Shown here piece after piece: positions 6,584 through 60,015 of a stretch of 64,000 nucleotides of DNA (positions are counted from its first letter, which is position 1; each line of letters opens with the position of its first letter). A program made the position numbers and the translations under genes. The notes under the pieces were generated by a model, which did no database searches, was not told where the DNA came from, and saw only the letters and a program-made list of their open reading frames with translations. This DNA is from an uncultured Gammaproteobacteria bacterium (lineage in GTDB: Bacteria; Patescibacteriota; Microgenomatia; Levybacterales; GWA1-39-11). Location of the stretch: contig CAZYWG010000010.1 in the NCBI GenBank assembly GCA_964651815.1, forward strand, positions 1,377 through 65,376, read 5' to 3'.

Positions 6584-8095
6584 TTAGAACCCAGGGAAGT
6601 AGTCTGTTATTATTTGGCGGTCAGGAATTTTCATAGATTTTAATAACTCTTTTGTTGAATCTACTACTGCTTGGGAACCTGAGATATAAAACGTGCGGCT
6701 CGAATAATCAGAAACTTCGTCTTTTATCATTTGCTGCGTGAGTCGACCAACTCTCCCCCTCCAGTCACTTGTAATCGTTTTCTCATCAGTTAATGTATGA
6801 ACGACTTTTATTCCGAGTTTATCATGTGCGTCATTTAAAACATCCATGTAAACCGCGTCTTTTGCAACTTTATTTATATGAATAACAACTATGTCCCGTC
6901 TTTCATTTTTATCAACCAAATATTTAACCATACTTCTATAAGGCGTAATTCCAATCCCACCCGCAATAAAAACCAACTTTCTATTTTGGTCTTGTGGCAA
7001 AGTAAAATCCCCTGCAAGTTGTCCGGCAAGAAGCGGTGTTTTGGGTTCTAACAATATTAAGGACTTCTTGAAACTACTTCCATTTGGATAAAAACGGACG
7101 CCAAGACGTACTGTGTCTTCTGTTGGCGACGATGCAATAGTAAAGTAGCGCCTATTTCCACGGCTGTCGATTTTAGCATGAGGCAGCGTCCATTCCATGT
7201 ATTGTCCCGGAGTAAATACAAAGCCCGTTGGACGCGGAAAAATAAAATCAACAATATTTTCTCCTATTGCTACTTTTTCTTTTAACTTTAAAATGTATTT
7301 TATTTTTGGGCTAACCGCGTATGAGAAAATATTCCCAACAAGAAGCGCAATTTCAGGAGTTGTATAGTTTCCTGCAATTTTTAATTGAGGTGAAAAAAGA
7401 ATTCCAATTAAAACGCCGTAAATTATTTGTAACTTTTTTGTAGGCGGCGCGGTCAATGGTTCTGTCAACATAACAAATGCAAAGAAAAGAATTGGGGATT
7501 CTGAAAAAGTCGCCCGTATTATTGTGAATGGGTCCGACCCTTTCAGCATCGAAAGTCCGACAATTGTCGCGAGAGCCGCTATAAAATAATAAAATACCAG
7601 ATCAAATCTTCTGATTTTACGGACAACTAAAACTCCAAGGAGTGCAAAAGGAAGCATGGGCAAGGTCCCTATCCACCAAGAAGCAGACCCAATTCCTGTC
7701 AACGCAGTTACTACAATAGCAAAAGCCGCAGGGTTAAAAATATGTTTTCTTTTATACGCAATTATAAATTTTGACGACATAGACAATACTCCTGCCCAAA
7801 AAAGAAACGGCAGATCGTGATAACTATGAAGAGGCGTTATGATAAGTGCAAGAATTAATGCAGTAATATAAACTGATTCGGCGTTTGCGGGTACATCAAA
7901 TACATAAGCAAAAATTTTATTTGTTATATAACAAACTGCAGTTAAAAATAGCGTTGAGAAAATAAGTGTAAATGGATTAAATGCTAGCCAACCTAAAAAA
8001 CAGTAAACAAATGCAACACCAACAAGCAAAATAAGATAGTACAAAAGAAGCTTGTACATTGTTATAGAATTTAGAAAATTATCAATTTGTTTCAT
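6584..8095 (-). CDS. Polytopic membrane protein fused to ferredoxin-NADP+ reductase-like FAD- and NAD(P)-binding domain (membrane flavin oxidoreductase)
   Basis: N-terminal about 230 aa with about 6 TM helices. C-terminal RRYFTIASSP (RxYS FAD motif) and FIAGGIGITP (NAD(P) motif). Confidence 0.65.
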   Translation of the reverse strand: MKQIDNFLNSITMYKLLLYYLILLVGVAFVYCFLGWLAFNPFTLIFSTLFLTAVCYITNKIFAYVFDVPANAESVYITALILALIITPLHSYHDLPFLFWAGVLSMSSKFIIAYKRKHIFNPAAFAIVVTALTGIGSASWWIGTLPMLPFALLGVLVVRKIRRFDLVFYYFIAALATIVGLSMLKGSDPFTIIRATFSESPILFFAFVMLTEPLTAPPTKKLQIIYGVLIGILFSPQLKIAGNYTTPEIALLVGNIFSYAVSPKIKYILKLKEKVAIGENIVDFIFPRPTGFVFTPGQYMEWTLPHAKIDSRGNRRYFTIASSPTEDTVRLGVRFYPNGSSFKKSLILLEPKTPLLAGQLAGDFTLPQDQNRKLVFIAGGIGITPYRSMVKYLVDKNERRDIVVIHINKVAKDAVYMDVLNDAHDKLGIKVVHTLTDEKTITSDWRGRVGRLTQQMIKDEVSDYSSRTFYISGSQAVVDSTKELLKSMKIPDRQIITDYFPGF

Positions 8096-8826
8096 ACTAC
8101 AAACTTTTCAAAACCTGACGTATATGTTGCAATCCCCTTCTTATCTATCATATAACCTTCGAGATCTTTTTGTCTCTCAATAAATTCAATTCCGGTTGCT
8201 CCCATTGCAAATGCTGCAGTAGCAAAGCGGTCAGCCTCATATATATTGGGACCTATAACCGTAATACTGGCTACAGAATCAGCCTCTTTACCCGTTTTGG
8301 GGTTATATATATGAAAGCCACGCTCATATGTGCCTGACGTAGCCACACCAACGTTCGAAACAGCTATAACCTTCACATTCTCGCTAGTTTTGAATGGATT
8401 TTTTATTCCCACCCTCCATTTTTCACTTTTCGAATTTACGCCCTGCACTTCTATATCTCCACCTGCCTCTACATAAAAATTTTTAAAACCTGCCTTGTTC
8501 AAAATACATGCGGCATTATATATTGCCCAACCCTTTACAATCCCTGACGGATCAATTTTCCCGTTCCGGTAGATATCAAAAAATCCATCCGTTTCTTGCT
8601 TAGTTTTTTCAGCGAGCTTAAAAATTTCATTCATCTCATCACTGAATTTTCTTTGCTCGATTTCTTTACGGTTTATCTTTGAAATTTCGGAAGTTTTTTT
8701 ATAAGTGCTAAACTTTTCATCTACGTATTTGAAATAATCAAAAATTCGCTCAAATATTTTCTTGGAAGAACTGCCCACAATCTCAATTGTCACGGGCATC
8801 CCCATTATTATTCTTGTCTTCTTCAT
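8092..8826 (-). CDS. apbE: FAD:protein FMN transferase (ApbE family)
   Basis: IMGMPVTIEI, DPSGIVKGWA, GGD, VATSGTYERGF ApbE signatures. Start overlaps upstream stop by 1 nt, so translationally coupled. Confidence 0.75.
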   Translation of the reverse strand: MKKTRIIMGMPVTIEIVGSSSKKIFERIFDYFKYVDEKFSTYKKTSEISKINRKEIEQRKFSDEMNEIFKLAEKTKQETDGFFDIYRNGKIDPSGIVKGWAIYNAACILNKAGFKNFYVEAGGDIEVQGVNSKSEKWRVGIKNPFKTSENVKVIAVSNVGVATSGTYERGFHIYNPKTGKEADSVASITVIGPNIYEADRFATAAFAMGATGIEFIERQKDLEGYMIDKKGIATYTSGFEKFVV

Positions 8827-9329
8827 TAGCTTGCTTTTGAGAGAGCACTCTGGAGAGATAGTCTAAACGCCTCCGATGTTTGAGTGGCGCCAGTTATAAT
8901 ATCAACGTTTGCGTTCTGAGCGACAATTGCCTCTTGTTTCAGATACGGCATTGCTTGAGTATTTATCATGACAGATGTCCCGCGGTCATTTGGATATTGC
9001 AAAAAAGTAACGTCACTAATTTTCCCGCCAGTGATTGCGACTTCAACTTGAATGTTACCGTAAAACGCGTCTGTTACGTCCCCCGTATACTGCCCATCTT
9101 TATACTTTCCTGCTTGCGGCGCTGGCGTTGATGTAGGATTTAGCACAGAACCTGCTGTAGGGGGCGGTGCTGATGAAGACGCAGTTGTTGGAATTGGAAA
9201 GGAAGTCGGCTGCACTTTTTGCGGCGGAACAACGTGTGCCGCCTCTTGTTCAGAACTTTGGTGCAACAAATATATAGCAAATATGAAAATAACAAATGCA
9301 GATAAAGCAACTTTTTTCATGAGAAACAA
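8826..9329 (-). CDS. Extracytoplasmic FMN-binding domain protein (NqrC/RnfG-like), membrane-anchored with Pro/Thr-rich linker
   Basis: N-terminal TM anchor, then a PTS-rich linker, then DIITGATQTSEAF, which matches the D-x-x-SGAT-x-TS covalent-FMN threonine motif. Confidence 0.65.
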   Translation of the reverse strand: MFLMKKVALSAFVIFIFAIYLLHQSSEQEAAHVVPPQKVQPTSFPIPTTASSSAPPPTAGSVLNPTSTPAPQAGKYKDGQYTGDVTDAFYGNIQVEVAITGGKISDVTFLQYPNDRGTSVMINTQAMPYLKQEAIVAQNANVDIITGATQTSEAFRLSLQSALSKAS

Positions 9330-9388: not shown

Positions 9389-10132
9389 TTACTTTTCGCC
9401 TTTTTTCCAACTGGCAGAACTCAGTACTGGCGCGTAAACATCATCATCTATACTAATTTTTAGGTCGTCGATTTCCTGTTGTGTAGGATTTCGGTCTTGG
9501 AATTTTACAAACGGAACATCAGTTATTACAACAATTGGCGTCTGCTCGTTTCCTTCCCCTCCTGATAACGCTGCCGCTGCGCCCAAAGCGTCTGATATTG
9601 CAACTTTTGTCATTTTGAGTTGACGGCCAAAAATGTCAGGCGTCCCAATTAAATCGTTTAGCGCTGCAAATCCTGAATGCGCAATAGAGATTCCTGTCAC
9701 ACCCCACCTTAAAGGAGTAGTTTTGCTGTCCGTTATTATTACTCCGAATTCCTTGAGGCCGAATTTTTTAACAAAATGCTCGCGGATCGCGTTTGCACTT
9801 TTCTGCGAATCCTCTGGCCATAAAACATAAAATCCACCAGTATTTGACTCATCTATCCCGCCGGAGACTGCAAGAATATTATTTTTTATGGTAAGGAATA
9901 AATTGTATTTATTTTCTTCTTTTGGTAAATAAAAATCTGCCTCCTGTTTTATGAGTTCATCTTTATCAGAATTTTCGACTGGTGTTACTCTCCCCTCACA
10001 AATTGCAACAACTTTACTACTCACGGCCAGAATTGAACCTTCCTCAAGTTTTTCTACATATTTATCAAGCAGCTCAAATAATCCAATAGATCCCGCTTTT
10101 ACCTTTTCCGTTTTTATTGCTACAACATTCAT
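9389..10132 (-). CDS. CofE-like protein (coenzyme F420-0:L-glutamate ligase family)
   Basis: LAVSSKVVAICEGR, ITDSKTTPLRWG, GAAAALSGGEG motifs typical of the CofE/FbiB N-terminal domain. Confidence 0.55.
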   Translation of the reverse strand: MNVVAIKTEKVKAGSIGLFELLDKYVEKLEEGSILAVSSKVVAICEGRVTPVENSDKDELIKQEADFYLPKEENKYNLFLTIKNNILAVSGGIDESNTGGFYVLWPEDSQKSANAIREHFVKKFGLKEFGVIITDSKTTPLRWGVTGISIAHSGFAALNDLIGTPDIFGRQLKMTKVAISDALGAAAALSGGEGNEQTPIVVITDVPFVKFQDRNPTQQEIDDLKISIDDDVYAPVLSSASWKKGEK

Positions 10133-10165
10133 AATCTTGTCAAGCCAGGGATGACAACTGCATTG

Positions 10166-10693
10166 TCATTTAATCACCTTATATTTTAACAAAAGCGTTC
10201 CTTTTTTATTCAATTTTTCGCTTGATATAATCTCTAGGTTTGATTCAAATTCGCCTTCACTAAATAAATTTTTTCCTTGTCCAAAAATAACCGGCTCAAC
10301 TGTCAAATAGATTTCATCCACCAAATTCTGTTCTAAAAAAGACGAATAAACTTTTGCTCCACCAACAAGAAGCATTTGTTTATATGTTTTAGATAGTCGA
10401 TTTACTAATTCAACAGGAGTTTCCGAGCTAAATTCAAGCGCCCCCTCAACTTGTTCGCCTTTATATTTTTCCTGAGAACTTGTGAGTATAATTCTTAATT
10501 GTCCTTTCTTAGTTTTAAATTTACCCCGAATCACTTCGAAAGTCGAGCTCCCCATCACTATTAATTTGTTCTTTGAAAGAAGATCGAAAAATAATTTTTG
10601 GTCTTCTGGTGACGTCCATTCATAAATATCCTGACTCAAACCGCGGGTTAATTTTCCATTTAAAGATGTTACAGCAACCATTACTATTTTCAT
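10166..10693 (-). CDS. RibD C-terminal domain / dihydrofolate-reductase-like family protein (YwjB-like)
   Basis: MKIVMVAVTSLNGKLTRG...MGSSTFE...QMLLVGGAKVYSSFL, the pattern of the DHFR-like reductase fold. Confidence 0.55.
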   Translation of the reverse strand: MKIVMVAVTSLNGKLTRGLSQDIYEWTSPEDQKLFFDLLSKNKLIVMGSSTFEVIRGKFKTKKGQLRIILTSSQEKYKGEQVEGALEFSSETPVELVNRLSKTYKQMLLVGGAKVYSSFLEQNLVDEIYLTVEPVIFGQGKNLFSEGEFESNLEIISSEKLNKKGTLLLKYKVIK

Positions 10694-10715
10694 GTGGGTT
10701 ATAAATTACAAGTTA

Positions 10716-11378
10716 TTAGTTTTTCACTTTCAGCCACTTAACTCCGGCGTAGACAAAAGGGGTTTCAATAACAGACATAACGCATTTAAGAAACCAATAA
10801 GGTAAAATGAGGCTTGTTAAAAAAGAAACATTTATTCCAAAGCCTTTATCAAATGCGTAAAATGCTAAAAACATGAATATTGCAGTATCAAGGAATTCAG
10901 AAATGAAATTGGAGGCATTATTTCTGAACCACAGAGCTTTTTTGCCAAACTTCTCGCGAATCTTAACAAAAATAAAAACATCAGTAAATTCAGCAATAAC
11001 AAATGCTGTTAGAGATGCTGCGGCAATTCTTGCAGAAAGTCCAAATATAGCGTCATAATGAACTTCTGATAATCTAAATCTTGTGGATGGCGGCAACGCG
11101 GTTGAAATAAGAGAAAAAATCAGGACCAAAAAAACTACCAAAAGTCCGGATCGGACTACGCTTCTTGCTCGTGCAACACCATGAACTTCTGTAATCATAT
11201 CATTAATTGTATAAACAAGAGGAAGAATAAGTATTGCTACACTTGAGTTAAATTGATATCCAAAAACTTTCACGAGGGGGAAAGTCTTTGCACCCATGAG
11301 TTCCGATGCAGCAATACAGAAAATATAGATTGCCACAAGCAAATCAAACTTTTCAACTTTGAATAATTTCATTAACAC
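10716..11378 (-). CDS. YhhQ/Vut-family membrane transporter (queuosine/7-deazaguanine precursor transporter family)
   Basis: YTINDMITEVHGVARARSV conserved motif; 6 TM, about 220 aa. Confidence 0.55.
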   Translation of the reverse strand: MLMKLFKVEKFDLLVAIYIFCIAASELMGAKTFPLVKVFGYQFNSSVAILILPLVYTINDMITEVHGVARARSVVRSGLLVVFLVLIFSLISTALPPSTRFRLSEVHYDAIFGLSARIAAASLTAFVIAEFTDVFIFVKIREKFGKKALWFRNNASNFISEFLDTAIFMFLAFYAFDKGFGINVSFLTSLILPYWFLKCVMSVIETPFVYAGVKWLKVKN

Positions 11379-12430: not shown

Positions 12431-12721
12431 TTATAGATTTCCCTGTCTATTACCACAAACAGCGCTATTGTTTAGTCCTGTCTGCTCTCCGTTAGCACCT
12501 CCTGCTAGATTGTTATCTTTTCCAAAATAACCAAATGCCCCTGAACCTGCTCCTGAGTCACATTGAGCTCCAACTTCTGTGGCTTGTTGTCTTCCGGGAT
12601 TATCATTATATCTATCTATTCCCGGTGTTGAATTTCCTGCAGCGAATGCCGGCACTACCAAACTCCCACACATTACTACAGTAGCTGCTGTCGTAAATGC
12701 AATTTTTTTAATATTTAACAT
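12431..12721 (-). CDS. Small secreted Gly-rich 2-Cys protein (paralog family with 12931..13185)
   Basis: Signal peptide MLNIKKIAFTTAATVVMCGSLVVPAFAA, Gly/Asn-rich mature part with 2 Cys. Strong RBS AAAGGAGGTGAATAT. Confidence 0.5.
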   Translation of the reverse strand: MLNIKKIAFTTAATVVMCGSLVVPAFAAGNSTPGIDRYNDNPGRQQATEVGAQCDSGAGSGAFGYFGKDNNLAGGANGEQTGLNNSAVCGNRQGNL

Positions 12722-12930: not shown

Positions 12931-13185
12931 CTATGGAGTCGGATCTCCACCACATCCAGTCTTGTATGCTTGGTTGATTGGACCGTTATCTCCGGCCCGT
13001 TGTGAAGCGTAATAACCTACTCCACCTGCATCATGACCAAGTGATCCGTTTACTACTGCATATGCTGCGCGGTCTGAACCGAAACATCCCGGGGTTGCTG
13101 GTGCTGCTGCGAATGCAGGAGCAATTAAGCTTCCCACCATCATAGTAGTTGCTGCTGCTGTAAACGCTATTTTCTTAATACTCAT
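12931..13185 (-). CDS. Small secreted Gly-rich 2-Cys protein (paralog of 12431..12721)
   Basis: Signal peptide MSIKKIAFTAAATTMMVGSLIAPAFAA is nearly identical to its neighbour's. RBS AGGAGGTGAATAAAAAATG. Confidence 0.5.
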   Translation of the reverse strand: MSIKKIAFTAAATTMMVGSLIAPAFAAAPATPGCFGSDRAAYAVVNGSLGHDAGGVGYYASQRAGDNGPINQAYKTGCGGDPTP

Positions 13186-36606: not shown

Positions 36607-37953
36607 TTGATACTATTGGTAATGAAAATGGTGAAGAGTTTAAAACAATCAGATCCCCGAATATTTGAATTAATAAAGGAAGAAGAAAAACGCCAAAGAG
36701 ACGTCCTTGAAATGATCCCCTCAGAAAACTACGCTTCATCTGCAGTCCTGGAAGCACTTGGAACGGTACTCAACAACAAATATTCAGAGGGATATCCCAA
36801 AAAAAGATATTACCAGGGAAATGCGGTTGCTGATGAGGTTGAACAACTCGCTATAGACCGCGCAAAAAAACTATTTGGTGTACCTTATGTAAACGTACAG
36901 GCTCTTTCAGGTAGTGTTATGAATCTTGCAGTATATTTTGCAACGCTTGAGCCTATGAAAGGAAAAATTATGGGTTTATCTCTCTCCTTTGGAGGACACC
37001 TAACCCATGGCGCAAAACTTACCGCTTCAAGCACATTTTATAAGTCGGTCCAGTACACTTTAGGCCGCGACGGGCAGCTTGATTTTGATCAAATCGAAAA
37101 ACAGGCAATTACAGAAAAGCCCAATATAATTGTCTGTGGATTTACAGCATATCCCCGAGTTATAGATTTTGAAAAGTTTTCAAAAATTGCAAAAAAAGTG
37201 AACGCACTTTTACTTGCTGACATTTCTCATATTGCCGGGCTCGTTGTAGGAGGAGCACACCCCTCTCCGGTGCCGTATGTTGACATAGTAACCACAACTA
37301 CTCACAAGACTCTTCGCGGCCCTCGTGGCGCTCTTATCATGGTCACAGAAAAAGGTTTGAAGCGTGATCCGGATTTAGGTGCAAAAATTGACAGAGCAAT
37401 TATTCCAGGGCTTCAAGGTGGCCCGCATGACAATCAAACAGCTGCAATTGCCGTTGCACTTCTTGAAGCATCCCGTCCAGAATTTAAAAAATATGCTTCA
37501 CAGATAGTAAAAAACTCCCGAGCCTTGGCTGAGGCGCTTACAAGCTATGGATTTGACTTAGTAAGTGGTGGGTCTGATAATCATTTGATATTAATTGATC
37601 TGCGGAACAAAAAAGTAAGTGGAAATGTTGCAGCCCTCGCTTTAGAACGGGCAGGAATTGTGCTTAATAAAAATGGGGTGCCGTATGATACAAATCCACC
37701 ATTCTACCCCTCAGGAATAAGACTTGGAACCCCGGCAATAACTACACGCGGACTCAAGGAGGGCGATATGAAAAAGGTAGCCACGTGGATTAATAAAGCC
37801 GTAGATTTAGTATCTCCAAACGAGGCACCGTCTGAAAAAGAAGCACGGACCGCTTGGTGGAAGGAAGAAAAAAAGAAAATTATGGCGAATAAAGAGTTAC
37901 TAAAAATTGGAAAAGAAGTAAAATCTTTCGCTTCAAAACTTCTTTTACCCTAA
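36607..37953 (+). CDS. glyA: Serine hydroxymethyltransferase
   Basis: PSENYAS, TTTTHKTLRGPRG (PLP lysine), GGPH. Confidence 0.9.
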   Translation: MILLVMKMVKSLKQSDPRIFELIKEEEKRQRDVLEMIPSENYASSAVLEALGTVLNNKYSEGYPKKRYYQGNAVADEVEQLAIDRAKKLFGVPYVNVQALSGSVMNLAVYFATLEPMKGKIMGLSLSFGGHLTHGAKLTASSTFYKSVQYTLGRDGQLDFDQIEKQAITEKPNIIVCGFTAYPRVIDFEKFSKIAKKVNALLLADISHIAGLVVGGAHPSPVPYVDIVTTTTHKTLRGPRGALIMVTEKGLKRDPDLGAKIDRAIIPGLQGGPHDNQTAAIAVALLEASRPEFKKYASQIVKNSRALAEALTSYGFDLVSGGSDNHLILIDLRNKKVSGNVAALALERAGIVLNKNGVPYDTNPPFYPSGIRLGTPAITTRGLKEGDMKKVATWINKAVDLVSPNEAPSEKEARTAWWKEEKKKIMANKELLKIGKEVKSFASKLLLP

Positions 37954-38846
37954 GAGGCAATTGCTAGAGGGTCTGATCTGTAAGCAACAATCGCAGGAAC
38001 TGTAACATGAGGACCTTTAAGATACACACTGTGAGGAGGAGGAGTTAAAACTACTCTTATAATATCGTATTTGGCAAACAGAGGATCTATTATTGCTGCC
38101 TGCCTGCTATCTAGGTTTGGGGTTTGGTTCTCTCTATGAAAAGCACAAAAAGTAAACCTGCCATCAGGCTTTAATTTTGTAACTAATAGATTTGGCTGGA
38201 GTAAATCGTTAATTCCAAGTTCTTCCGGGCGTAGCTGATGTGTATCGGAAAAGAGTAAACTTATTGATCCATCTGGCATTTTAGCCAGCTCTTCATCTGC
38301 ATCCCCATTTATAACGTTTATTTCTACATTAGGTGCCCCGGGAAATCTACTTCTCAACTCTGCGCGCTTTTGGTCTGCCCATTTCTGTGCGTATTTGAAA
38401 TTACCTTCATTTAATTCTACTATTGTGTGTGTACCACCCTCTGCCCTCAATCTATCATATATTCTATCTGCAATTTTCCCAAGTCCAAATCCTCTTTCAA
38501 CTACATTTTGAGGGCCATTTTTACCTTGGAACATATGGCGAACCGTCGCGTCAACCCATGGGGTCTCAAAATCATCCATTACTTGCTCATTGTCAATTAA
38601 AAGGATTCTGCCACCACCGTAAGGGGTTCCGTCAGGATATTCTCCTTCTCCATATACAGTAATTTTAGATTGTGATTTTCTCCATTTATCTTGCAATATC
38701 TTTCTGTCTACTAATTGTGCGTCTTTCCCATTTATTGAAAAGCCGGAGGCATACGTCTGGTCACCTACCACAGTAATATCTCCCGGCTGAGGACCCGAGT
38801 TTGCATTAAAAAACCTTCCTAATATAGGAAGTCCTTCGTGAGTCAT
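37950..38846 (-). CDS. Hypothetical protein with a class-I methyltransferase-like or spermidine-synthase-like fold signature
   Basis: VERGFGLGKIADRI (GxGxG-like). Weak. Confidence 0.35.
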   Translation of the reverse strand: MTHEGLPILGRFFNANSGPQPGDITVVGDQTYASGFSINGKDAQLVDRKILQDKWRKSQSKITVYGEGEYPDGTPYGGGRILLIDNEQVMDDFETPWVDATVRHMFQGKNGPQNVVERGFGLGKIADRIYDRLRAEGGTHTIVELNEGNFKYAQKWADQKRAELRSRFPGAPNVEINVINGDADEELAKMPDGSISLLFSDTHQLRPEELGINDLLQPNLLVTKLKPDGRFTFCAFHRENQTPNLDSRQAAIIDPLFAKYDIIRVVLTPPPHSVYLKGPHVTVPAIVAYRSDPLAIAS

Positions 38847-38909
38847 ATTTTCTCACGAGATTATATCATAGCTTGAGTTCGAAATAAAGCTTATAGTTGA
38901 AAAAAAAGA

Positions 38910-40127
38910 TTGATATGCTACAATACCCTCAGAATGAAAGTTAGGGATATAATGGAGCAAAACGTTATCAGCGCCTCACCTAGTACCTCCGTTAACCAGA
39001 TAGCAAACATAATTTTTGGCCACGAAATAACAGCAGTACCCGTTATTGATACCAGAGGTAAACTTGTGGGGATAGTAAGCGAAACTGATATTTTAGACAA
39101 TTTTTTCCCAATTGAAAAACTCAAATCCGACGGTACTAATAAAGTTCTTTCCTCATCGGCAGAGGAAATAATGAGCCCAAAAGTAATCACAGTAGAAAGT
39201 GAAGCAAATGTAAGCGAAGCATATTCAATAATGGAAAAAAATAAGATAGTAAGTTTGCCTGTTTTGGACAAAAACGCTAAAGTCATTGGCATTATCTCAA
39301 AGACTGATATATTCAAATCTATTGTAGACAATCAATTCTTTTCTTCGTGGGGACAGGAAGAATTTCACGAATGGCTCGCAACCTATTTTGATAAGTATGT
39401 ATCCTGGCAAAAAAGGCTTATTAAGGAAATTGCATTTATAAAATATCAACTCAAAGGACGTTCTAAAAAGATTATTGACGTTGGTTGCGGAACAGGTGAG
39501 CATTCAATTGCGCTTGCAAGACAAGGGTTTGAAGTCTTGGGAATAGATAAAAGCTCAAGTATGATTGCAATTGCAAACAATAAACTTGAATCTTTACCGG
39601 AAAAGTTACGGAAAAAAGTCTCATTTAGAAAAGTAGGCACAGACGAACTCGCAGATAAATTAAATGAGAAATTTGATGCGGCAATTATACTTGGAGGAGT
39701 AATATCACACTACTTTGATTTGGCAAAATATCTTAAAGGCATACAATCTGTTCTCAACAGCACGAATACAATTATAATTCAGGTTCCAAATTATGAACAC
39801 ATTCTTGAAGAGAAAAATAGGTTTAGCAGTCTTAGTTTTATAAAACCTTCACCTAAAAGCCAAGAAGAATCTGCTCTCTTATCTTTTTTTGACTTTCGGG
39901 ATGACGGACTTATCAATTTAAATACTGCCGAATTTGAATTTATTGGTAAAACGTGGGAAACAAGAGGGGTTGCAACAACAGTTCTTAAACCTTATACAAA
40001 ACGTCAATTAATTCTTGTGTTAAAAAAATTAAACTACACCAAAATTGAAAGTGCGAGAGACAGGTCCCATGCTATGTTTAATCCCGATGAAGAAAAATCG
40101 GGACTTTTTATTGTTGCTAAGATTTAA
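38910..40127 (+). CDS. CBS-pair domain fused to class I SAM-dependent methyltransferase
   Basis: Two CBS motifs (ITAVPVIDTRGKLVGIVSETDIL; IVSLPVLDKNAKVIGIISKTDIF), then IIDVGCGTGEHSIALARQGFEVLGIDKS. Confidence 0.6.
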   Translation: MICYNTLRMKVRDIMEQNVISASPSTSVNQIANIIFGHEITAVPVIDTRGKLVGIVSETDILDNFFPIEKLKSDGTNKVLSSSAEEIMSPKVITVESEANVSEAYSIMEKNKIVSLPVLDKNAKVIGIISKTDIFKSIVDNQFFSSWGQEEFHEWLATYFDKYVSWQKRLIKEIAFIKYQLKGRSKKIIDVGCGTGEHSIALARQGFEVLGIDKSSSMIAIANNKLESLPEKLRKKVSFRKVGTDELADKLNEKFDAAIILGGVISHYFDLAKYLKGIQSVLNSTNTIIIQVPNYEHILEEKNRFSSLSFIKPSPKSQEESALLSFFDFRDDGLINLNTAEFEFIGKTWETRGVATTVLKPYTKRQLILVLKKLNYTKIESARDRSHAMFNPDEEKSGLFIVAKI

Positions 40128-40150
40128 ATAATACTTGACAAGCAACATTC

Positions 40151-40807
40151 TTGTCAGGCAATATTAATTTAATGGCATCCACCAAAAAATCCCACTCCTT
40201 TTCAATATCTGCTGCAATTACTTATGGATGGAATGTGGCTCTAAAAAATCTTTGGTTTTTTGTGGTTTTACTTTTAATGATTCTCGCAACTAATATAGTA
40301 CCAAGTATTCTTGCCTCAATTATTGATAATGGGCGGGCTACACTTTTTGGCTTTTTAGTAAAACTAATTGGATGGATTATACAAATTGCAATCTCAATGG
40401 GTGCAATTGGTATTGCGCTTCGTCTTTACGACAAAAAGAAAGCCGAATATAAAAATCTGCTTGATTATACTCATCTTATCATCCCCTATTTTCTTGCTTC
40501 TATCCTTTATACTTTGATTGTGCTTGTTGGATTAATCCTCTTTATTATCCCGGGCGTTATCTGGTCACTTAAATTCAGGTTTTATTCATACTTTATTGTT
40601 GACCGCGGAATGGGACCAATTGAGGCGCTACGTGCAAGTTCAAAAATTACTCGTGGAAATAAGTGGAATTTGTTTTTCCTAGGGATAATACTTGGACTTA
40701 TAGATATAGTTGGCGCACTTGCATTACTGATAGGTCTTTTTGTAACAATGCCGCTTTCAATGATGGCCGAAGCGTACGTATTCCGCAAACTTTCCGCAAA
40801 GAAATAA
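40151..40807 (+). CDS. Integral membrane protein (DUF975-like)
   Basis: Six hydrophobic helices, 218 aa. Confidence 0.4.
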   Translation: MSGNINLMASTKKSHSFSISAAITYGWNVALKNLWFFVVLLLMILATNIVPSILASIIDNGRATLFGFLVKLIGWIIQIAISMGAIGIALRLYDKKKAEYKNLLDYTHLIIPYFLASILYTLIVLVGLILFIIPGVIWSLKFRFYSYFIVDRGMGPIEALRASSKITRGNKWNLFFLGIILGLIDIVGALALLIGLFVTMPLSMMAEAYVFRKLSAKK

Positions 40808-41290
40808 TTAGCGCGTAAGGTCTACAAACTCATATTCCAATCCGTCGTCATTGTGCTTTTCTGAAAAAACTACATTTTTAAAATTGGAATAATCCGGAAA
40901 AAATGCGTCCGCCATAGGTGCTTCTGCATTAATTTTTGTTAAATAAAGCTTGTTTGCCTCGCCTATCATCTGTTCAAAAATTTGCGCGCCGCCGAGAATA
41001 AAGATTTCTTCTGATCCTTCCGAGTTTTTTGCAATTTCAACGGCTTCTTCAAGGGAGGTTGCAACTTGTGCTGCTTCGATTTTTTTATAACTGTCTCGAC
41101 TCACAATTATGTTAGTCCTATTTGGTAATATTCTGCCTATTGATTCAAAAGTTTTTCTACCCATAACAACTGGGTGTCCCAAGGTTAATTCCTTGAATCT
41201 TTTTAAATCATCGGATATTCTCCAAATTAGTTCATTCCTCTGGCCTAATTCGCGATTTATACCAATTGCCGCGATCATTGAAATTTTCAT
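40808..41290 (-). CDS. folA: Dihydrofolate reductase
   Basis: ISMIAAIGINRELGQRNELIWRISDDLKRFKELTLGHPVVMGRKTFESIG. Confidence 0.8.
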   Translation of the reverse strand: MKISMIAAIGINRELGQRNELIWRISDDLKRFKELTLGHPVVMGRKTFESIGRILPNRTNIIVSRDSYKKIEAAQVATSLEEAVEIAKNSEGSEEIFILGGAQIFEQMIGEANKLYLTKINAEAPMADAFFPDYSNFKNVVFSEKHNDDGLEYEFVDLTR

Positions 41291-41718
41291 GTGGTGTTTG
41301 CTGCGCGGACCGCTTCAAGAGTATTTGGTAGAAGTTGGTCTTCATCCGCAAGCGCATAAAGCATGTCTATTTCTATCCATTCAGGAATTGTTTCACTACT
41401 CTCTTTTAACTCCCCGGAAAAGTTTTTAACCTTAAAAACGCGCCATGCAAAATTAATTTCTGTTCCATCTTTTCTGGGGATTGAAGCTTCAAAAAAATTA
41501 TTTGGGAATTCGGAAAAATCCTTTACGTCCGATTTTAAACCAGTTTCTTCCTCAAACTCGCGATGTGCCGCGTCTATTTCCGCTTCATCAGATCCCACGC
41601 GCCCGCCCGGTAACCCAAAAATTCCCGTTATGTGTTCTGCCTGGTCTGTATGCTGTACCAAAAGCACTTTTCCGTCATTTATTGCAACTATTCCAACCGA
41701 TTTAGTCTTATCTTGCAT
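41287..41718 (-). CDS. NUDIX hydrolase
   Basis: Nudix box GLPGGRVGSDEAEIDAAHREFEEETG. Confidence 0.75.
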   Translation of the reverse strand: MQDKTKSVGIVAINDGKVLLVQHTDQAEHITGIFGLPGGRVGSDEAEIDAAHREFEEETGLKSDVKDFSEFPNNFFEASIPRKDGTEINFAWRVFKVKNFSGELKESSETIPEWIEIDMLYALADEDQLLPNTLEAVRAANTT

Positions 41719-42687
41719 TTATTTTTCCTCGTAAAAACCGCCTGCTATAGTTAATTCTCCTTTTATCATTGGGTGTGGATCATAATTTTCAAGAATTATT
41801 TTGTCGGGAGTAAAGTCTGAAAGCTTTTCCATTTTTCCTTCTATTCTGACCGTTGGAAAAGGTTTTGGCTTGCGTTTTAACTGTTCTTTAAACTGTTCAA
41901 TATGATTTTCATAAATATGGACATCTCCAAACGTGTGGATAAATTCCCCCGGTTCAAGCTTTAATATCTTAGCAAGTATCAAAGTTAATAAAGCGTAACT
42001 AGCAATGTTAAACGGTACACCTAAAAATAAATCTGCGGATCTCTGATAAAGCTGGAGCGACAATTTGTTTCCTCGTCTTGAGATTTGATACATATTGTGA
42101 CAAATTGGGAAACGGCTTGCGTCTTCTTTTGTGGCCATTGTATATAAATACTCGGGATTCCAGGAGTTAACAATTACATTGTGTGCGCTTGGATCATCTT
42201 TTAATTCTTTGATTGCCCATGCAAGTTGATCAATAGTCCTGCCGGAGCGCGTAGGCCAAGCTCTCCACATTTCGCCATAAATTCTTGGGAGATTCCCCCA
42301 CTCTTTTGCGAATTTAGAATCGGTTTTTATTTTCTCGATGAACTCATCTTTATTTTTAATTTCGGATTTTGAATTTCGAATTTTAGATTTTTTTTCCAAA
42401 AAAATCTTGTACGGATAATCATCCCAAATGTGGACATTATTATCCACAAGATATTTAATATTCGTTTGGCCGGAAAAAAACCAGTAAAGTTCGTGAATTA
42501 CGCCTTTCCAATATACTTTTTTTGTGGTCAAAAGAGGAAAGCCCTCTGACAAATCATATCTATGCTGCCTCCCAAAAAGACTGAAGTCCGCAACTTTAGT
42601 CCCACGGTCAACTTGCTTTATTCCATCGCGCAAAATTTCTTTTGCAAGATCTAAGTATTGATATTCCTGATGCTTTTGCTTTGCCAT
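41719..42687 (-). CDS. thyA: Thymidylate synthase ThyA. Start taken at the internal Met (MAKQKHQEYQYLDLAKEIL) to avoid a 113-nt overlap with dcd.
   Basis: RFPICHNMYQ (active-site Cys), GVPFNIASYALLT. Confidence 0.85.
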   Translation of the reverse strand: MAKQKHQEYQYLDLAKEILRDGIKQVDRGTKVADFSLFGRQHRYDLSEGFPLLTTKKVYWKGVIHELYWFFSGQTNIKYLVDNNVHIWDDYPYKIFLEKKSKIRNSKSEIKNKDEFIEKIKTDSKFAKEWGNLPRIYGEMWRAWPTRSGRTIDQLAWAIKELKDDPSAHNVIVNSWNPEYLYTMATKEDASRFPICHNMYQISRRGNKLSLQLYQRSADLFLGVPFNIASYALLTLILAKILKLEPGEFIHTFGDVHIYENHIEQFKEQLKRKPKPFPTVRIEGKMEKLSDFTPDKIILENYDPHPMIKGELTIAGGFYEEK

Positions 42688-42688
42688 A

Positions 42689-43228
42689 TTAAACTTGAAC
42701 TTCTTTTTTTGTTGCCGAAACTCTTCCCCCTTGCCATTGACCTCTGTACTTATTTCCCCCGCCCGCAACTTCTGAAAATTGTATATGAACAAACCTTGCA
42801 CCCATTTCTATTTCAACTATGATCGGCCCCGCATTATACAGACCGAACGTCAAACCCCCGCAATATCCCGGCGGCACATTGCCCACTCGCAAGACCAAAC
42901 CACTTCTATAAGTCGTGGATCGAGGCGTAATTGACGCAGTTAAATTTTCCGGCATATTGACTGATTCAATAGTTTTGACAAGAAAAAAGTCTCCGGGCTT
43001 TATTTTTACGGAAGTAGTTTTGGATTTGTCGTATTTTTTAACTAGTTTTATGTCTGGTGTGTGACGCTCTGTCACTCCCAAAAATGCTTTTCCTGAAATT
43101 TTGTAGACTTCATCCAACCTGAGGTCAAATCCCGCGCCTTCCGGGTTTGTTAATTCACGCTCTGACAATCCTTCAACCAGCTTTTTCTTTTTGACGAGTT
43201 CGAGTATTTTTGTGGGGCCCAATATCAT
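42689..43228 (-). CDS. dcd: dCTP deaminase / dUTPase-family protein
   Basis: GAGFDLRL, GxxxxGYxGxL (PPGYCGGLTFGLYN) trimeric dUTPase-fold motifs. Confidence 0.7.
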   Translation of the reverse strand: MILGPTKILELVKKKKLVEGLSERELTNPEGAGFDLRLDEVYKISGKAFLGVTERHTPDIKLVKKYDKSKTTSVKIKPGDFFLVKTIESVNMPENLTASITPRSTTYRSGLVLRVGNVPPGYCGGLTFGLYNAGPIIVEIEMGARFVHIQFSEVAGGGNKYRGQWQGGRVSATKKEVQV

Positions 43229-43367
43229 AATTTGAAATTTTTAATTTTAAATTTTCAATGAAATACAAATGTTTGAAAATTAAATTTTAAAAATTCACTT
43301 CAAATTTCAAATTTCGAATTGAAAATTGTTAGATAATACTAAACAAAACCGTGCGGCTTTTCAAGTG

Positions 43368-44030
43368 TTACTTTAACTTTTCATTGACTTTATTTAGAAG
43401 ATCTCGAGAGACTTCTTCAATATATTTATTTGCGTCTAAGATTTCCAATTCACTGGGAAACTTTTCAATAAGTTTTTTGTATGCCGTATCTATATTAACG
43501 AGCTTTTTTTTATCATCATAAATTTCTTTGTGTTTGTGGCTGCCTTCAATACGCTTAGCTGCTTCATCCACATTAACATCTAAAAAGAATGTGTAATCTG
43601 GACGTATAAATTGGTTATAAAAAGATAAAACCGAAAACGCTACCAGATAGAAATCAGCATTCCCATCTAAATCTGAAATTCCATATGCAACAGCTGACCA
43701 AAAATAGCGGTCCGTGACAACAATTTGCCCTTCCGATAGATACTTTTCGAGCGTAATTTGATGTTCAGCACGGTCTGCACAAAATAAATATTGCAAAGCA
43801 ATTGGAGTAATCTTTATTTCGCCGCTCAAAACGCGCCTGATCAATTTTCCCACTTCTCCGTCTGTTGGTTCTTTTGTGTAAATTGCTTTTTTACCTTCCT
43901 TTTTGAGATTCTCGACTAAAAGCTCGGCCTGAGTAGTTTTACCGGACGCATCAATCCCTTCAATTGCAATCAATTTCCCTGGGTATTTATGTTCTCTCAA
44001 TTCTAGTTCGAAGTTAATAGGATATTTCAT
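43368..44030 (-). CDS. tmk: Thymidylate kinase
   Basis: IAIEGIDASGKTTQ P-loop, DRY motif (VVTDRYFWSAVAYG). Confidence 0.85.
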   Translation of the reverse strand: MKYPINFELELREHKYPGKLIAIEGIDASGKTTQAELLVENLKKEGKKAIYTKEPTDGEVGKLIRRVLSGEIKITPIALQYLFCADRAEHQITLEKYLSEGQIVVTDRYFWSAVAYGISDLDGNADFYLVAFSVLSFYNQFIRPDYTFFLDVNVDEAAKRIEGSHKHKEIYDDKKKLVNIDTAYKKLIEKFPSELEILDANKYIEEVSRDLLNKVNEKLK

Positions 44031-44875
44031 TATCTCCTTATATATTCAGGTTCTTCACCTGCAATTAAGTCTACATCTCCTACTTGTTGTTGCTCGTTCT
44101 GTAAAGCCAATTTATCTGCATAATATCCTCTATATTGCTCTGGGAGAAGATTTGCTACATCTAGCATGACACTGTCTATCATGGCTGTTCTGCCTACTCT
44201 GTTCTGCATTCCAAAACCTGGTAGTTCTGATGCTTTACGCAATTTTCCAAAAGCCAAATAAACAGGGCCTCTTTTTGGCAAACCTCTTTTTACGGGTAGC
44301 CTTTTTTCTGTCTCCCAAATTGCCATAGGCATTACCTCCAAGTCATCAGCAATGTTTAGATATTCGCCGGTTCCCGGCAGTCCTTTGTTAAGTTGGCCAT
44401 CCCGACTTCTCCCTCCTTCAGGAAAAATTACTAATAAACGCCCTCCATTTAAAACCGCTCTGCTTGCGTTGAACGCTTTTTCGTTCATAGCTTTTTTCTG
44501 TTCTTCCTCCTTTGCGTTTCTTGCTCTTAATGACGGGGGCCAAACCGGAATTATGTTGGCTCCGCGATGAAGAGCGTTTGTAACAGGATTTCTAGTAAGT
44601 TTTATCCCAAATATAAAAACAGGGTCTATAATACCTGCCCTGCCCAAGACTGTATTAAATAACGGTCCATCAGCATTACTTAAATGGTCACCAACGCCAA
44701 GTATAGGGACTCCGGCGTCAAGCTTTGCTTTTGCTTCCGCCAGATTTTCAAGTCCATAAATATTTATCTCTGACGCCCCAAATTTAATAAGTCCTTCGAT
44801 TATTGTCCTTCTAACTTCACTCTCCGGCAATACACCGTTTGCTTTAAAATCTTTCTTTGCTAGTCTTTCTCCCAT
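44030..44875 (-). CDS. Lysophospholipid/glycerol-3-phosphate acyltransferase-family protein
   Basis: GDHLSNADGP matches the HxxxxD acyltransferase motif; FPEGGRS motif. Confidence 0.5.
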   Translation of the reverse strand: MGERLAKKDFKANGVLPESEVRRTIIEGLIKFGASEINIYGLENLAEAKAKLDAGVPILGVGDHLSNADGPLFNTVLGRAGIIDPVFIFGIKLTRNPVTNALHRGANIIPVWPPSLRARNAKEEEQKKAMNEKAFNASRAVLNGGRLLVIFPEGGRSRDGQLNKGLPGTGEYLNIADDLEVMPMAIWETEKRLPVKRGLPKRGPVYLAFGKLRKASELPGFGMQNRVGRTAMIDSVMLDVANLLPEQYRGYYADKLALQNEQQQVGDVDLIAGEEPEYIRR

Positions 44876-44878
44876 AAT

Positions 44879-45481
44879 TTATTTCTCCCTGTCGAGTTTT
44901 GATTCTATCGGGTTGCTTTGCCCAACGTATTTTGCGCCCACCTTTTTATAATAAGGTACGTCAGCTTTAGAACTCATTTGCATAAACGCTATAGCGCAGA
45001 TTCTCATCCCGGGATATAAAGCAACGGGCATTTTACCCATATTTGCGAGCTCTAAAGTGATTTTGCCGCGAAAGCCGCACTCAATTGACGCTGCGGTAGA
45101 ATGTACTATTATACCAAGTCTTCCAATGCTAGATCTACCCTCTAATGCCCCTACTAAATCATCGGGCAATTCCACGTATTCTACCGTAGTCCCCAATACA
45201 AAATCCCCGGGCTGAATTATAAATGGCTCTGTCTTACTTTTCCTAATTTCGCGCGTAACTTCTTCACCGATATTTTTTTTGAAAGGGTCAATAAATGCGT
45301 ACTTTGAGTGGTCAAAAATTCTAAAAGTGTTTCCAAGACGCAAGTCTATAGAGTTTGAACCAAGCTGTTCTTCTAAATTCAATGCGGGGCGTATTTTTAT
45401 TCTTTTTGTGGCAAGTGCCTCTTTTATATCGCGGTCTGACAAAACCATAATTGTCTGGACATTATACCAGATACTTTTCAT
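44879..45481 (-). CDS. dcd: dCTP deaminase-family protein (second paralog)
   Basis: IDLRLGNTFRIF...GFRGKITLELAN motifs of the Dcd/Dut fold. Confidence 0.65.
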   Translation of the reverse strand: MKSIWYNVQTIMVLSDRDIKEALATKRIKIRPALNLEEQLGSNSIDLRLGNTFRIFDHSKYAFIDPFKKNIGEEVTREIRKSKTEPFIIQPGDFVLGTTVEYVELPDDLVGALEGRSSIGRLGIIVHSTAASIECGFRGKITLELANMGKMPVALYPGMRICAIAFMQMSSKADVPYYKKVGAKYVGQSNPIESKLDREK

Positions 45482-45557: not shown

Positions 45558-46163
45558 ATGGATTCTAATAACCAAGATTCAAAAAATGACATTGCCGGAA
45601 AAGGGCAAAGCGGCGCGCCTGAAGGGACAATTGAAAATATCTCTCCAAAAGAACCAAGCACTGTTGTTATTCCCCATGTAGACAAATTTGGTTCTGGTTT
45701 GTTTTCTATTTTCCAAAAATCAGCAGGAACCATATTTCTCTTGCTAATTGTTTTAACTGTTCCGGTAACTGTTGCCCTTCTTTCAAAAGAACAAGACGTC
45801 CGACAACGCGCGAGTTTTGAACCTACTGCAGCCCCCACTCCTGCAAAATTTAATATATCGGGAAATGTTTATGAAGACACTAACAATAACGGCGTGCATG
45901 ACAATTGGGAGCTTGGACCGGGAGGCGTAAAACTTGACTTAATTAGCCAAAATATCAAAATAGAAATCTCAACTGATAAATATGGCAATTATTCTTTTGA
46001 AAAATTTGGTGGACTAGTAAGCGGAACATATACTATCACGCTTGTTGCTCCCGCCGGTTTTACGCCAATATCTACAACTAGTGTGAATGTAAATCTTGGA
46101 CCTGACGCCGTAGTAGACTTTGGTCTCAAGAAATCCACAGCTCTTCCAAAACCTACTATTTAA
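45558..46163 (+). CDS. Membrane-anchored protein with SdrD-B/Cna-B-type beta-sandwich domain
   Basis: ISGNVYEDTNNNGVHDNWELGPGGVKLDL...TDKYGNYSFE, the classic SdrD B-like repeat. Confidence 0.5.
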   Translation: MDSNNQDSKNDIAGKGQSGAPEGTIENISPKEPSTVVIPHVDKFGSGLFSIFQKSAGTIFLLLIVLTVPVTVALLSKEQDVRQRASFEPTAAPTPAKFNISGNVYEDTNNNGVHDNWELGPGGVKLDLISQNIKIEISTDKYGNYSFEKFGGLVSGTYTITLVAPAGFTPISTTSVNVNLGPDAVVDFGLKKSTALPKPTI

Positions 46164-46237
46164 AAAGTGAGTAAATCTTTTATTTTAGTTATGCAATTTT
46201 TCTTAAGATTTGCCGCCTGTTGACATATTGAAAGAAA

Positions 46238-47572
46238 TTGCTTATTCTAAGTTCAAGGCATTTTATGCAAAAGTTGCGAGGCGGTATTGAATTTATTTTA
46301 TCTTCATCTAAATGGGCTTCGCTGCTTCTTATTATCATCGCGCTTTTACTTATTTCCTCAATATTTCTTAAAAATGGGAATAAAGCATCCGCACAAGAAG
46401 CCATTGCAAAACCCAATCTTACTGTCACTCAAGTTCAGCTCAGAAGAAACGCGTACCCTAATGCAAATTGTAGCAACGGAACATTAGTCACAGAGGGAAT
46501 GATGCTTAACCCCGGCGAGACTATAGAGGTCTGTATGGTTTATTCAAACAATGGAACTGCTGTTTCATCGTCGAATTTTAAAATTGACAATTACATAAAC
46601 CAAACAACACAACCCGCTGCCGGAACGCGGGGTTATCAATCATATCCTTATCCGCTTGGCTCACTTGGGCCAGGCGGAAGTTATACGTTGGAAATTGGAA
46701 GTATAGTCCCAAGCACTTCCATATGTTCATCTAATTGTCATGCCGGAGTATTTATTGATAGCGACAACACCGTAAGCGAGTCGAATGAAAGTGACAACTT
46801 TGCATATTCAGTTTCCTACAGTCTCCCAGCTGTTACTACTAGCTTCTGCGTTTCATGTGCTGCTCCACCCGATGGATGTAGTTATACAGGTGGCAGTTGC
46901 CAAAGCTGTGGCACTGTGGTCTGTACCACTTCAACTCCTGCGCCAACCTGTACCCCACGTCCTGCTTGTTCTCTACCCGGTGCTAATCCTATATGCGGAC
47001 TTGTAGAACTTACCGGCGGTGGAACATATTGTCCTCTTACCACACTTGCCCCTACAACAGTCGGCGGAAATGGTGCTCAATGTAGTGTTTCTCTAGCGCA
47101 GGGCGCAAGCCAGCATGGCTCATGTCAAAGTGCATATATTTGTCAGATTAACGCGGCATCTGCTTGTACAGATTCTATGCCAGGTTCCTGCACCGGTACT
47201 TGTGTTGTAACAACTACTCCTCCAATTTGCCCTCTTCATAATTCAGGTGACGCAAACTGCGACGGAAAAATTGATATAGAGGACTTTAACGTATGGAAAG
47301 CCGATTTTCTTTCTACTTTCGGAAGTGGTAATAATCCCGGTGATTCACTTGGACTAGCAGATTTCAACAATGACAATAAAGTGGATACTGATGATTTTAA
47401 TATTTGGCGGGATGGATTTATAATAAAAAGCGCTAAAACTGGCTCATGTAGTGCTGTACCTGACGCAAATGGCGTATGTCCGGCAGGATGTGTAAACTAC
47501 GGGAATCCACTTGGATGTGTAACACAACAATATTATGATGAATGCCAAACGCAAGGAGGCTGTCCCAAATGA
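46238..47572 (+). CDS. Secreted Cys-rich protein with two dockerin-like calcium-binding repeats
   Basis: DANCDGKIDIEDFNVWKADF and DFNNDNKVDTDDFNIWRDGF match the dockerin D-x-N-x-D-G-x-x-x-x-x-D pattern. About 40 Cys in a Thr/Pro/Gly-rich region. Confidence 0.5.
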   Translation: MLILSSRHFMQKLRGGIEFILSSSKWASLLLIIIALLLISSIFLKNGNKASAQEAIAKPNLTVTQVQLRRNAYPNANCSNGTLVTEGMMLNPGETIEVCMVYSNNGTAVSSSNFKIDNYINQTTQPAAGTRGYQSYPYPLGSLGPGGSYTLEIGSIVPSTSICSSNCHAGVFIDSDNTVSESNESDNFAYSVSYSLPAVTTSFCVSCAAPPDGCSYTGGSCQSCGTVVCTTSTPAPTCTPRPACSLPGANPICGLVELTGGGTYCPLTTLAPTTVGGNGAQCSVSLAQGASQHGSCQSAYICQINAASACTDSMPGSCTGTCVVTTTPPICPLHNSGDANCDGKIDIEDFNVWKADFLSTFGSGNNPGDSLGLADFNNDNKVDTDDFNIWRDGFIIKSAKTGSCSAVPDANGVCPAGCVNYGNPLGCVTQQYYDECQTQGGCPK

Positions 47573-47598
47573 TAAAACATATTTTTTAAGAGAGAACT

Positions 47599-50118: not shown

Positions 50119-50239
50119 GAGAATTTCGAAATTAGAATTTAGAATTTGGGGTTGAAAATTAAGACTTTACAAAAATTAAAATAAGTACTAACCTATTATT
50201 AGCGTTCTATTCTAGATTCTAAACTATAAATTATTAAAT

Positions 50240-50890: not shown

Positions 50891-50980
50891 TAACCCACAA
50901 CCCTGAAAATCATCAAGTGTTGAGTTTGGGCACGCTTCTCTGTTAAAATATGTAATTCCGGCAAAAAGCGAATATTGCTG

Positions 50981-51052: not shown

Positions 51053-51077
51053 CACTGAAAAATGTTTCATTTTTAAG

Positions 51078-60012: not shown

Positions 60013-60015
60013 GAA

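Follow-up and report, generated by a model that had tools for sequence, protein, structure and literature searches.

Introduction

NQR/RNF-like systems were defined as flavinylation-associated gene clusters in which an N-terminal NqrB/RnfD-like domain (PF03116) is joined to a C-terminal PF00175 domain (Méheust et al. 2021, eLife 10:e66878, PMC8238504). The complex of Ktedonobacter racemifer was later modelled with two subunits only (Huang et al. 2024, bioRxiv 2024.03.13.584918, PMC10979944). In that study, the flavinylation site of NqrB/RnfD was not conserved in the corresponding membrane subunit. It was proposed that the flavin mononucleotide (FMN) of the NqrC/RnfG-like subunit samples the flavin site of the membrane subunit. 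Here we analysed three minus-strand genes at positions 6584-9329 of a 64-kb stretch of contig CAZYWG010000010.1, which is called the window. They encode a 503-residue membrane protein with a C-terminal reductase domain, an ApbE flavin transferase and an anchored FMN_bind protein. This operon probably specifies an NQR/RNF-like complex of two subunits that transfers electrons across the membrane through flavins alone, plus the enzyme for its maturation.

The trio is an ordinary member of the described class, because its membrane part is a domain of the RnfD/NqrB fold, and every defining feature that was tested was present. The NqrB/RnfD-like domain was fused to a PF00175 cytoplasmic domain at the C-terminus of the same polypeptide. 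The genes for ApbE and the anchored FMN_bind protein lay directly upstream (within five genes, with a signal peptide or anchor on at least one product). As in the work of Huang et al., the flavinylated Thr of NqrB/RnfD was lost from the RnfD-like subunit, and the second subunit was an NqrC/RnfG homologue with a flavinylation site (an FMN_bind domain and the motif DIITGATQTS). The lineages were also the same, namely bacteria of the candidate phyla radiation (CPR) and the Ktedonobacteria, relatives of the modelled Ktedonobacter complex. Nothing essential set the locus apart from the class; the PF03116 score of the fusion protein was 1.2 bits under the cut-off.

Organisation of the operon

The genes were read as the following open reading frames (ORFs).

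6584-8095, minus strand: membrane fusion protein, 503 residues
8092-8826, minus strand: ApbE, 244 residues
8826-9329, minus strand: FMN_bind protein, 167 residues from TTG at 9329

The junctions between the genes were TAATG, a 1-nt overlap, and ATGA, a 4-nt overlap. Positions and junctions agreed with the translational coupling that the first-pass annotation had proposed. The trio looks like a self-contained operon because a convergent amino-acid permease gene, ending at 6535, lies downstream and a 59-nt gap lies upstream. Beyond this gap, three more genes follow on the same strand. A regulatory hairpin or terminator in the gap was not significant (z=-1.05). The scan gave no terminator-like site, and promoter-like sites were not in excess over shuffled sequence. 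Rfam returned two tRNAs only and no riboswitch in the window. A 504-residue ORF at 52938-54452 was considered as a second copy of the fusion gene in the window and rejected, as it encodes an unrelated Big_7 protein.

Two gene starts were examined. The orthologues of the FMN_bind protein all start with MKK, and on this ground its start is most likely ATG 9320 (MKK..., 164 residues) rather than TTG 9329. In the public annotation, the fusion protein (P0001, 491 residues) begins at Met13. However, residues 1-12 were conserved in the homologue alignment, with D5 and T12 invariant. The 503-residue reading, and hence the 4-nt overlap, therefore appears better than the 491-residue call.

A membrane domain of the RnfD/NqrB fold

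The fusion protein was divided into two domains.

7310..8095, minus strand: RnfD/NqrB-like membrane domain with ten transmembrane (TM) helices, residues 1-262, both termini cytoplasmic
6584..7309, minus strand: cytoplasmic FNR-type domain binding flavin adenine dinucleotide (FAD) and NAD(P)H, residues 263-503 (Pfam, NCBIfam, Foldseek)

A single-sequence search of the PDB matched FNR domains only, and the FNR half likewise supplied most of the Foldseek matches to the full-length model. For this reason, the membrane domain was profiled and modelled separately. A profile of 15 membrane domains gave a sole match among solved structures, RnfD of Azotobacter (8ahx_D, E=0.033). In the HMMER alignment to 8ahx_D, the invariant TEPLTTPPT fell on TDPVTSP of RnfD. 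Comparison with E. coli RsxD by hhalign gave E=2e-5 over residues 156-257. The Pfam family NQR2_RnfD_RnfE (PF03116) matched near its threshold over residues 155-257 (26.5 bits, cut-off 27.7); a screen that relied strictly on Pfam would therefore miss the protein. Weak NCBIfam matches to RsxD, RnfD and NqrB covered the same stretch. Ten TM helices were given by the AlphaFold2 (AF2) model and by the positive-inside count. With the FNR domain placed inside, Lys and Arg averaged 8.1 per protein in inner loops and 1.2 in outer loops over 21 homologues. These results identified the membrane domain as having the RnfD/NqrB fold, which is common to NqrB/RnfD and the Amt/urea channels. The first-pass annotation had given this fused component six TM helices and called it different; neither description survived.

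We weighed a haem-based ferric reductase or NOX-type enzyme, with a 6-TM bis-haem domain and an FNR domain. NOX/FRE enzymes follow the same design, with a cytoplasmic FNR domain fused C-terminally to a membrane domain to send NAD(P)H electrons outward. A weak NAD_binding_6 match was found, and DUOX and NOX were among the Foldseek matches, through the FNR part only. However, the search for Ferric_reduct (PF01794) that had been suggested gave no Pfam match. NOX/FRE proteins have a 6-TM domain that holds two haems, with four haem-ligating His in Ferric_reduct, whereas the trio combines a flavin-binding RnfD/NqrB fold of ten TM helices with a distinct outer flavoprotein. In the membrane domains of the 21 homologues, a single His and no Cys was invariant, which ruled out bis-haem or Fe-S chemistry. 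The haem reading was rejected on these three grounds, and we find it hardly credible. The shortage of conserved His residues remarked on earlier is no anomaly, because the RnfD/NqrB fold carries flavins and not haem.

Predicted flavin sites in the membrane domain

Three sites of the membrane domain were located by alignment.

7727..7744, minus strand: H118-I-F-N121-P-A, riboflavin pocket, counterpart of NqrB N200-F-L-N203-P-A and RsxD NPFNPA
7451..7465, minus strand: T211-E212-P-L-T, counterpart of RnfD/NqrB T-D-P-V-T (NqrB T345/D346), from HMMER to 8ahx_D and hhalign to RsxD
7673..7690, minus strand: outer-face loop GSASWW, counterpart of RsxD GAGWQW and not a flavinylation site, from MAFFT with RsxD

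N200, N203, T345 and D346 of NqrB bind riboflavin, and the published primer gives the NqrB sequence as GR-N200-FL-N203-PA (PMC9293633). Their counterparts in the fusion protein were H118, N121, T211 and E212, all of them invariant or nearly so. H118, F120, N121 and P122 were invariant in the 21 homologues, as were E212, P213, L214 and T215, and MAFFT placed FNPA of the window protein on FNPA of RsxD. The riboflavin-pocket residues of NqrB are thus retained.

The covalent FMN site gave a different result. E. coli RsxD has FNPA at residue 121 and GWQW at 219, with the flavinylated Thr187 between them in DGISQATPLD, whereas the window protein has FNPA at 120 and SWW at 139-141. Because the spacing from FNPA to GWQW has collapsed, the periplasmic segment of about 80 residues that holds RsxD Thr187 is absent and not merely mutated. 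The motif [ST]GA[ST] was found nowhere in the 21 fusion proteins. The loop GSASWW was considered as a cryptic flavinylation site and rejected. Its counterpart in RsxD, GAGWQW, lies past the real site, and S139 was variable (N or T in some homologues), although A138, W140 and W141 were invariant.

The same fold raised the question of ion pumping. A minimal redox-driven pump, in which the RnfD/NqrB-like domain couples downhill electron transfer to cation export, would draw on two observations. The fold is that of NqrB/RnfD, a candidate Na+/H+ path in Rnf/Nqr, and of the Amt/urea channels, and NqrB D346, formerly assigned to the Na+ path, is conserved as E212. However, D346 has since been reassigned to riboflavin binding (PMC9293633). 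In addition, no homologue of RnfA/E (NqrD/E) was present in the window, and these subunits drive the conformational switch in current pump models. The published view is of unidirectional electron flow. We consider a pump improbable.

The cytoplasmic FNR domain

Two motifs were read from the sequence of the C-terminal half.

7139-7150, minus strand: FAD motif R316-Y-F-T319 (RYFT), of the Fre-like RxFT type
6941-6961, minus strand: GGIGITP, residues 379-385

Pfam NAD_binding_1 (PF00175) matched residues 376-481 with E=8e-13. NCBIfam matched many FNR-family reductases over residues 273-500, including flavohaemoprotein, Fre and NqrF. In the full-length AF2 model (predicted local distance difference test score, pLDDT, 83; predicted TM-score, pTM, 0.79), the C-terminal half had the FNR fold. 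Foldseek gave TM-scores up to 0.84, normalised to the target length, with Fre, the FAD domain of NqrF and cytochrome b5 reductase. The cytoplasmic side of this domain was backed by the positive-inside count. These results bore out the FNR fold and the GGxGITP motif that had been proposed for the C-terminus of the 503-residue protein. The flavin motif was RYFT and not the literal RxYS.

The anchored FMN_bind protein

The 167-residue protein carried two features.

9261..9311, minus strand: N-terminal transmembrane anchor VALSAFVIFIFAIYLLH, from hydropathy analysis
8874-8903, minus strand: flavinylation motif DIITGATQTS, read from the sequence

Pfam FMN_bind (PF04205) matched residues 90-163 with E=4.6e-10. 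Between the anchor and the domain lies a linker of about 49 residues rich in P/S/T/A/G/Q. The counterpart of DIITGATQTS in E. coli RsxG is DQFTGATIT, and the pattern D..[ST]GA[ST] was found in 22 of 26 orthologue ORFs. The residue predicted to bear FMN is Thr149, with its codon at 8883-8885. An anchored FMN_bind protein with this motif had been claimed from the start, and the domain match, anchor and motif all upheld it.

A leaderless ApbE

Pfam ApbE (PF02424) matched the 244-residue protein with E=6.9e-48. Its alignment with solved ApbE structures, Listeria FmnB (7esa) among them, begins at the first core strand and shows an internal deletion of about 48 residues. The ApbE motifs were kept in the orthologues: ATSGxYxR in 18 of 26, DPSGxVKGW in 21 and EADRxAT in 20. 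By its sequence, the protein is a genuine ApbE (FAD:protein FMN transferase), as had been annotated. Hydropathy analysis of this ApbE gave no hydrophobic segment, hence no signal peptide of the lipoprotein or Sec type. The reading frame is closed by a stop 12 codons 5' of its ATG. The absence of a signal peptide, also noted at first pass, was confirmed far beyond this locus. A hydrophobic N-terminus was lacking from ApbE in all 27 related clusters that carry an apbE gene. The 23 compact orthologues all start with MK.T..MGMP(I/V)T(V/I)E, and the four distant ApbEs of the Saccharibacteria-type and Uhrbacteria-type clusters likewise had no hydrophobic N-terminus. A leaderless ApbE is therefore a property of the whole family, and it is the sole unexplained feature of the locus.

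This feature is not discussed for NQR/RNF-like clusters by Méheust et al. (PMC8238504) or Huang et al. (PMC10979944), whose pipeline required a signal peptide on only one target gene. Candidate explanations are flavinylation before translocation, another export route for ApbE, a second secreted ApbE elsewhere, or an FMN_bind domain that faces inward. A frameshift or read-through fusion of FMN_bind and ApbE was tried as an export route and rejected. In one related locus (L001) ApbE is the first gene and is still leaderless.

The inward-facing arrangement would make the whole chain cytoplasmic, with a cytoplasmic ApbE (compare the cytoplasmic fumarate reductase of Klebsiella), and the trio would be a membrane-anchored NAD(P)H reductase of an internal or membrane substrate. 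The missing signal peptide in 27 of 27 clusters fits this arrangement, and cytoplasmic ApbEs are known, only with cytoplasmic targets (PMC12052999). However, the topology of the FMN_bind protein argues for the opposite side. Its orthologues had MKK followed by a hydrophobic helix every time, with about two K/R before the helix in nearly all, which means N-in and C-out by the positive-inside rule. Every FMN_bind partner in the related clusters had an anchor followed by a P/S/T/A-rich linker. Such linkers are common in extracellular tethers. RnfG/NqrC, built in the same way from one N-terminal TM helix, a linker and an FMN domain, face outward (PMC12174285). The flavin pocket that lacks its own FMN sits on the outer face of the RnfD/NqrB fold, and the published AF-multimer model docks the FMN_bind subunit at that face (Huang et al. 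2024, PMC10979944). We consider an all-cytoplasmic chain unlikely.

With the FMN_bind domain placed outside, ApbE may be cytoplasmic and attach FMN to the C-terminal NqrC-like motif before the protein crosses the membrane, or it may be exported by an unfamiliar route. We hold this only tentatively, on the ground that ApbE was leaderless in every cluster examined. In the Flavin-tag work, ApbE can modify short peptide tags (PMC9400968), which makes flavinylation before translocation conceivable.

Comparison with other redox systems

The trio shares with the Na+-NQR of Vibrio cholerae (NqrA-F) an NqrB-like fold with its riboflavin-pocket residues, an NqrC-like anchored outer domain with a predicted covalent FMN and an NqrF-like FAD/NADH domain. 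However, it has no NqrA, NqrD or NqrE. The NqrF-like part lacks the 2Fe-2S domain and is fused directly to the NqrB-like domain, which has no covalent FMN site. Electrons are predicted to exit the cell and not to return to quinone, and ion pumping is not expected. In comparison with Rnf (RnfABCDGE; RsxABCDGE in E. coli), RnfA, B, C and E were missing, as was the RsxD Thr187 segment, and the predicted donor is NAD(P)H through the FNR domain and not ferredoxin or RnfC.

Homology of the subunits to RnfD/NqrB, RnfG/NqrC and the FAD/NAD portion of NqrF would fit a leftover or accessory part of a complete Rnf or Nqr complex, with the remaining subunits encoded at other places in the genome. However, phmmer with E. 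coli RsxA, B, C, E and G found nothing in the window at E<=10, and the RsxD query matched only the fusion gene. The fused architecture and the missing covalent-FMN loop were both conserved across about 1,700 representatives, and the trio was self-contained in very different genomes. A leftover complex is thus very improbable.

In the extracellular electron transfer (EET) of Listeria, electrons likewise pass from cytoplasmic NADH to an ApbE-flavinylated surface FMN_bind protein in a fermentative organism. However, the membrane machinery is unrelated (Ndh2, quinone and EetA/B), and PplA and FmnB of Listeria are lipoproteins. The PplA model gave a negligible score (16.6 bits against a cut-off of 325), and no genes for Ndh2, EetA/B, DmkA or PplA were found among the annotated ORFs of the window.

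Distribution and conservation of the trio

Residues 1-262 were searched against 1.84 billion representative proteins at the 50% identity level. The search returned 1,709 representatives at E<=1e-3 and 383 at E<=1e-30, and nearly all complete homologues were 490-510 residues long. The first report counted 127 NQR/RNF-like clusters (Méheust et al. 2021, PMC8238504). The roughly 1,700 representatives found here, clustered at 50% identity, suggest a family much larger than that.

A scan of one genome per species gave about 35 loci with a full-length homologue, and 36 loci were analysed. Those of Patescibacteria came from Ames-, Levy-, Davies-, Nomura-, Pacei-, Uhr-, Adler- and Saccharibacteria. 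Those of Chloroflexota came from Dictyobacter, Ktedonospora, Anaerolineae, Chloroflexia and Kouleothrix, and a few loci had other labels. In 24 of the 36 loci, the fusion gene was directly preceded on its own strand by a compact ApbE gene and an FMN_bind gene; one of these loci (L002) has its FMN_bind gene cut by the contig end and is counted on a weak Pfam match. The remaining loci had a distant ApbE (four), FMN_bind only (three) or neither within 6 kb (five). Gene order was variable; in L001, it was ApbE, FMN_bind and fusion. The neighbourhood check thus supported co-conservation of the trio.

Several loci departed from the common form. In five loci of Saccharibacteria or Uhrbacteria type (L018, L024, L026, L029 and L035), the fusion protein was accompanied by a different small anchored protein with no Pfam match. 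Its C-terminal end, ...SRIAGASDTT, looks like a flavinylation motif of the Ser type. A distant and likewise leaderless ApbE of about 300 residues was present in four of the five loci. In L046 (4650-7520), all three genes were split into several frames, by pseudogenisation of the cluster or by an assembly error. L003 (4946-5952) carried two tandem FMN_bind genes and no ApbE within 6 kb.

Neighbouring genes

An OmpR-type response regulator and a histidine kinase followed the fusion gene in eight loci, and a MacB-type ABC exporter was near the trio in 5-7 loci. Nramp, a heavy-metal P-type ATPase and an SDR protein were neighbours in three loci each. Examples of these regulator, exporter, Nramp or P-type ATPase genes were seen in L001 (134-4089) and also in L011, L029 and L009. 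VIT1 was found in six NQR/RNF-like clusters by Méheust et al. (2021, PMC8238504). Metal reduction by some family members is possible; at the window locus, such a role found no support. The window ORFs of at least 200 residues were housekeeping, folate and thymidylate genes, transporters and many secreted proteins.

The three genes immediately upstream of the trio, at 9389-11378 (minus strand), encode a transporter of the Vut_1/YhhQ type, a DHFR-like protein (RibD_C) and a folate metabolism gamma-glutamate ligase (TIGR04132). These genes were considered as parts of the system and rejected. They recur beside the fusion gene in only one other locus (L027, 3985-5922; 50-75% identical, flanking the gene in divergent orientation), and because of this they were treated as mere neighbours. 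The adjacency thus stands in two of 37 loci, and its two arrangements might hint at a link.

Other features of the window were recorded. Two paralogous Gly-rich proteins of 84-96 residues are encoded at 12431-12721 and 12931-13185 (minus strand), with very similar N-terminal signal peptides (M..IKKIAFT.AAT...GSL..PAFA). Genes for SHMT, ThyA, thymidylate kinase and dCTP deaminase lie close together at 36607-45481, besides the DHFR-like and folate ligase genes beside the trio. The named relatives of the SHMT at 74-77% identity were all Candidatus Levybacteria, Levyibacteriota or Patescibacteria, and the window accordingly derives from a Levybacteria-like bacterium. The stretch 45558-62753 (plus strand) encodes many proteins in succession that are predicted to be secreted or at the surface, with SdrD_B, CARDB and cohesin domains and four Big_7 Ig-domain proteins. 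Two of these four are S8 subtilases with fervidolysin-like prodomains. Several large ORFs of this run (539-839 residues) had no Pfam match.

Discussion

The observed folds, motifs, topology and co-conservation can be set beside a predicted cofactor content, electron path and acceptor. NAD(P)H would reduce FAD in the FNR domain. The electron would then pass to a non-covalent flavin in the riboflavin pocket of the cytoplasmic half of the RnfD-like domain (H118, N121, T211, E212). The next site would be the outer-face flavin pocket, which has lost its own covalent-FMN loop and would be filled by the FMN that ApbE attaches to Thr149, as in the Ktedonobacter model of Huang et al. (2024, PMC10979944). 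From there, the tethered FMN domain would deliver the electron to an extracellular acceptor. The logic proposed at first pass, from NAD(P)H through a membrane flavoprotein to an ApbE-flavinylated outer flavoprotein, agreed as a prediction with our evidence and with the published proposal for the class.

Five points weigh against this interpretation. The PF03116 score of the fusion protein fell below the curated cut-off. The AF2 model was least confident in the outer loops where the FMN domain presumably docks (residues 111-140, pLDDT 46-55). The ApbE of the cluster has no export signal, although its substrate should be outside. A clue to the acceptor was absent, as no metal transporter, quinone or respiratory gene was found among the window ORFs of at least 200 residues. 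In addition, our literature search found no biochemical study of any NQR/RNF-like member.

The trio is not a new kind of system. Its class was defined in 2021, modelled in 2024 and already reported from the same lineage, in which it is known to be common. The locus sharpens the published picture in three respects: the covalent-FMN loop of RnfD is deleted outright and not mutated, the retained riboflavin-pocket residues suggest a concrete all-flavin route across the membrane, and the cluster ApbE is leaderless throughout the family. Few recognisable redox systems are present in CPR bacteria, and the three genes form a compact operon well suited to heterologous expression. A fermentative CPR cell would probably gain from it by regenerating NAD(P)+ or by reducing a substrate outside the cell, perhaps a metal, rather than by conserving energy. 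In Listeria, FAD is exported by a dedicated ECF transporter. If FMN attachment before membrane crossing is true, it would be a maturation route so far undescribed for surface flavoproteins, and it would spare a flavin-scavenging CPR cell the export of FAD.

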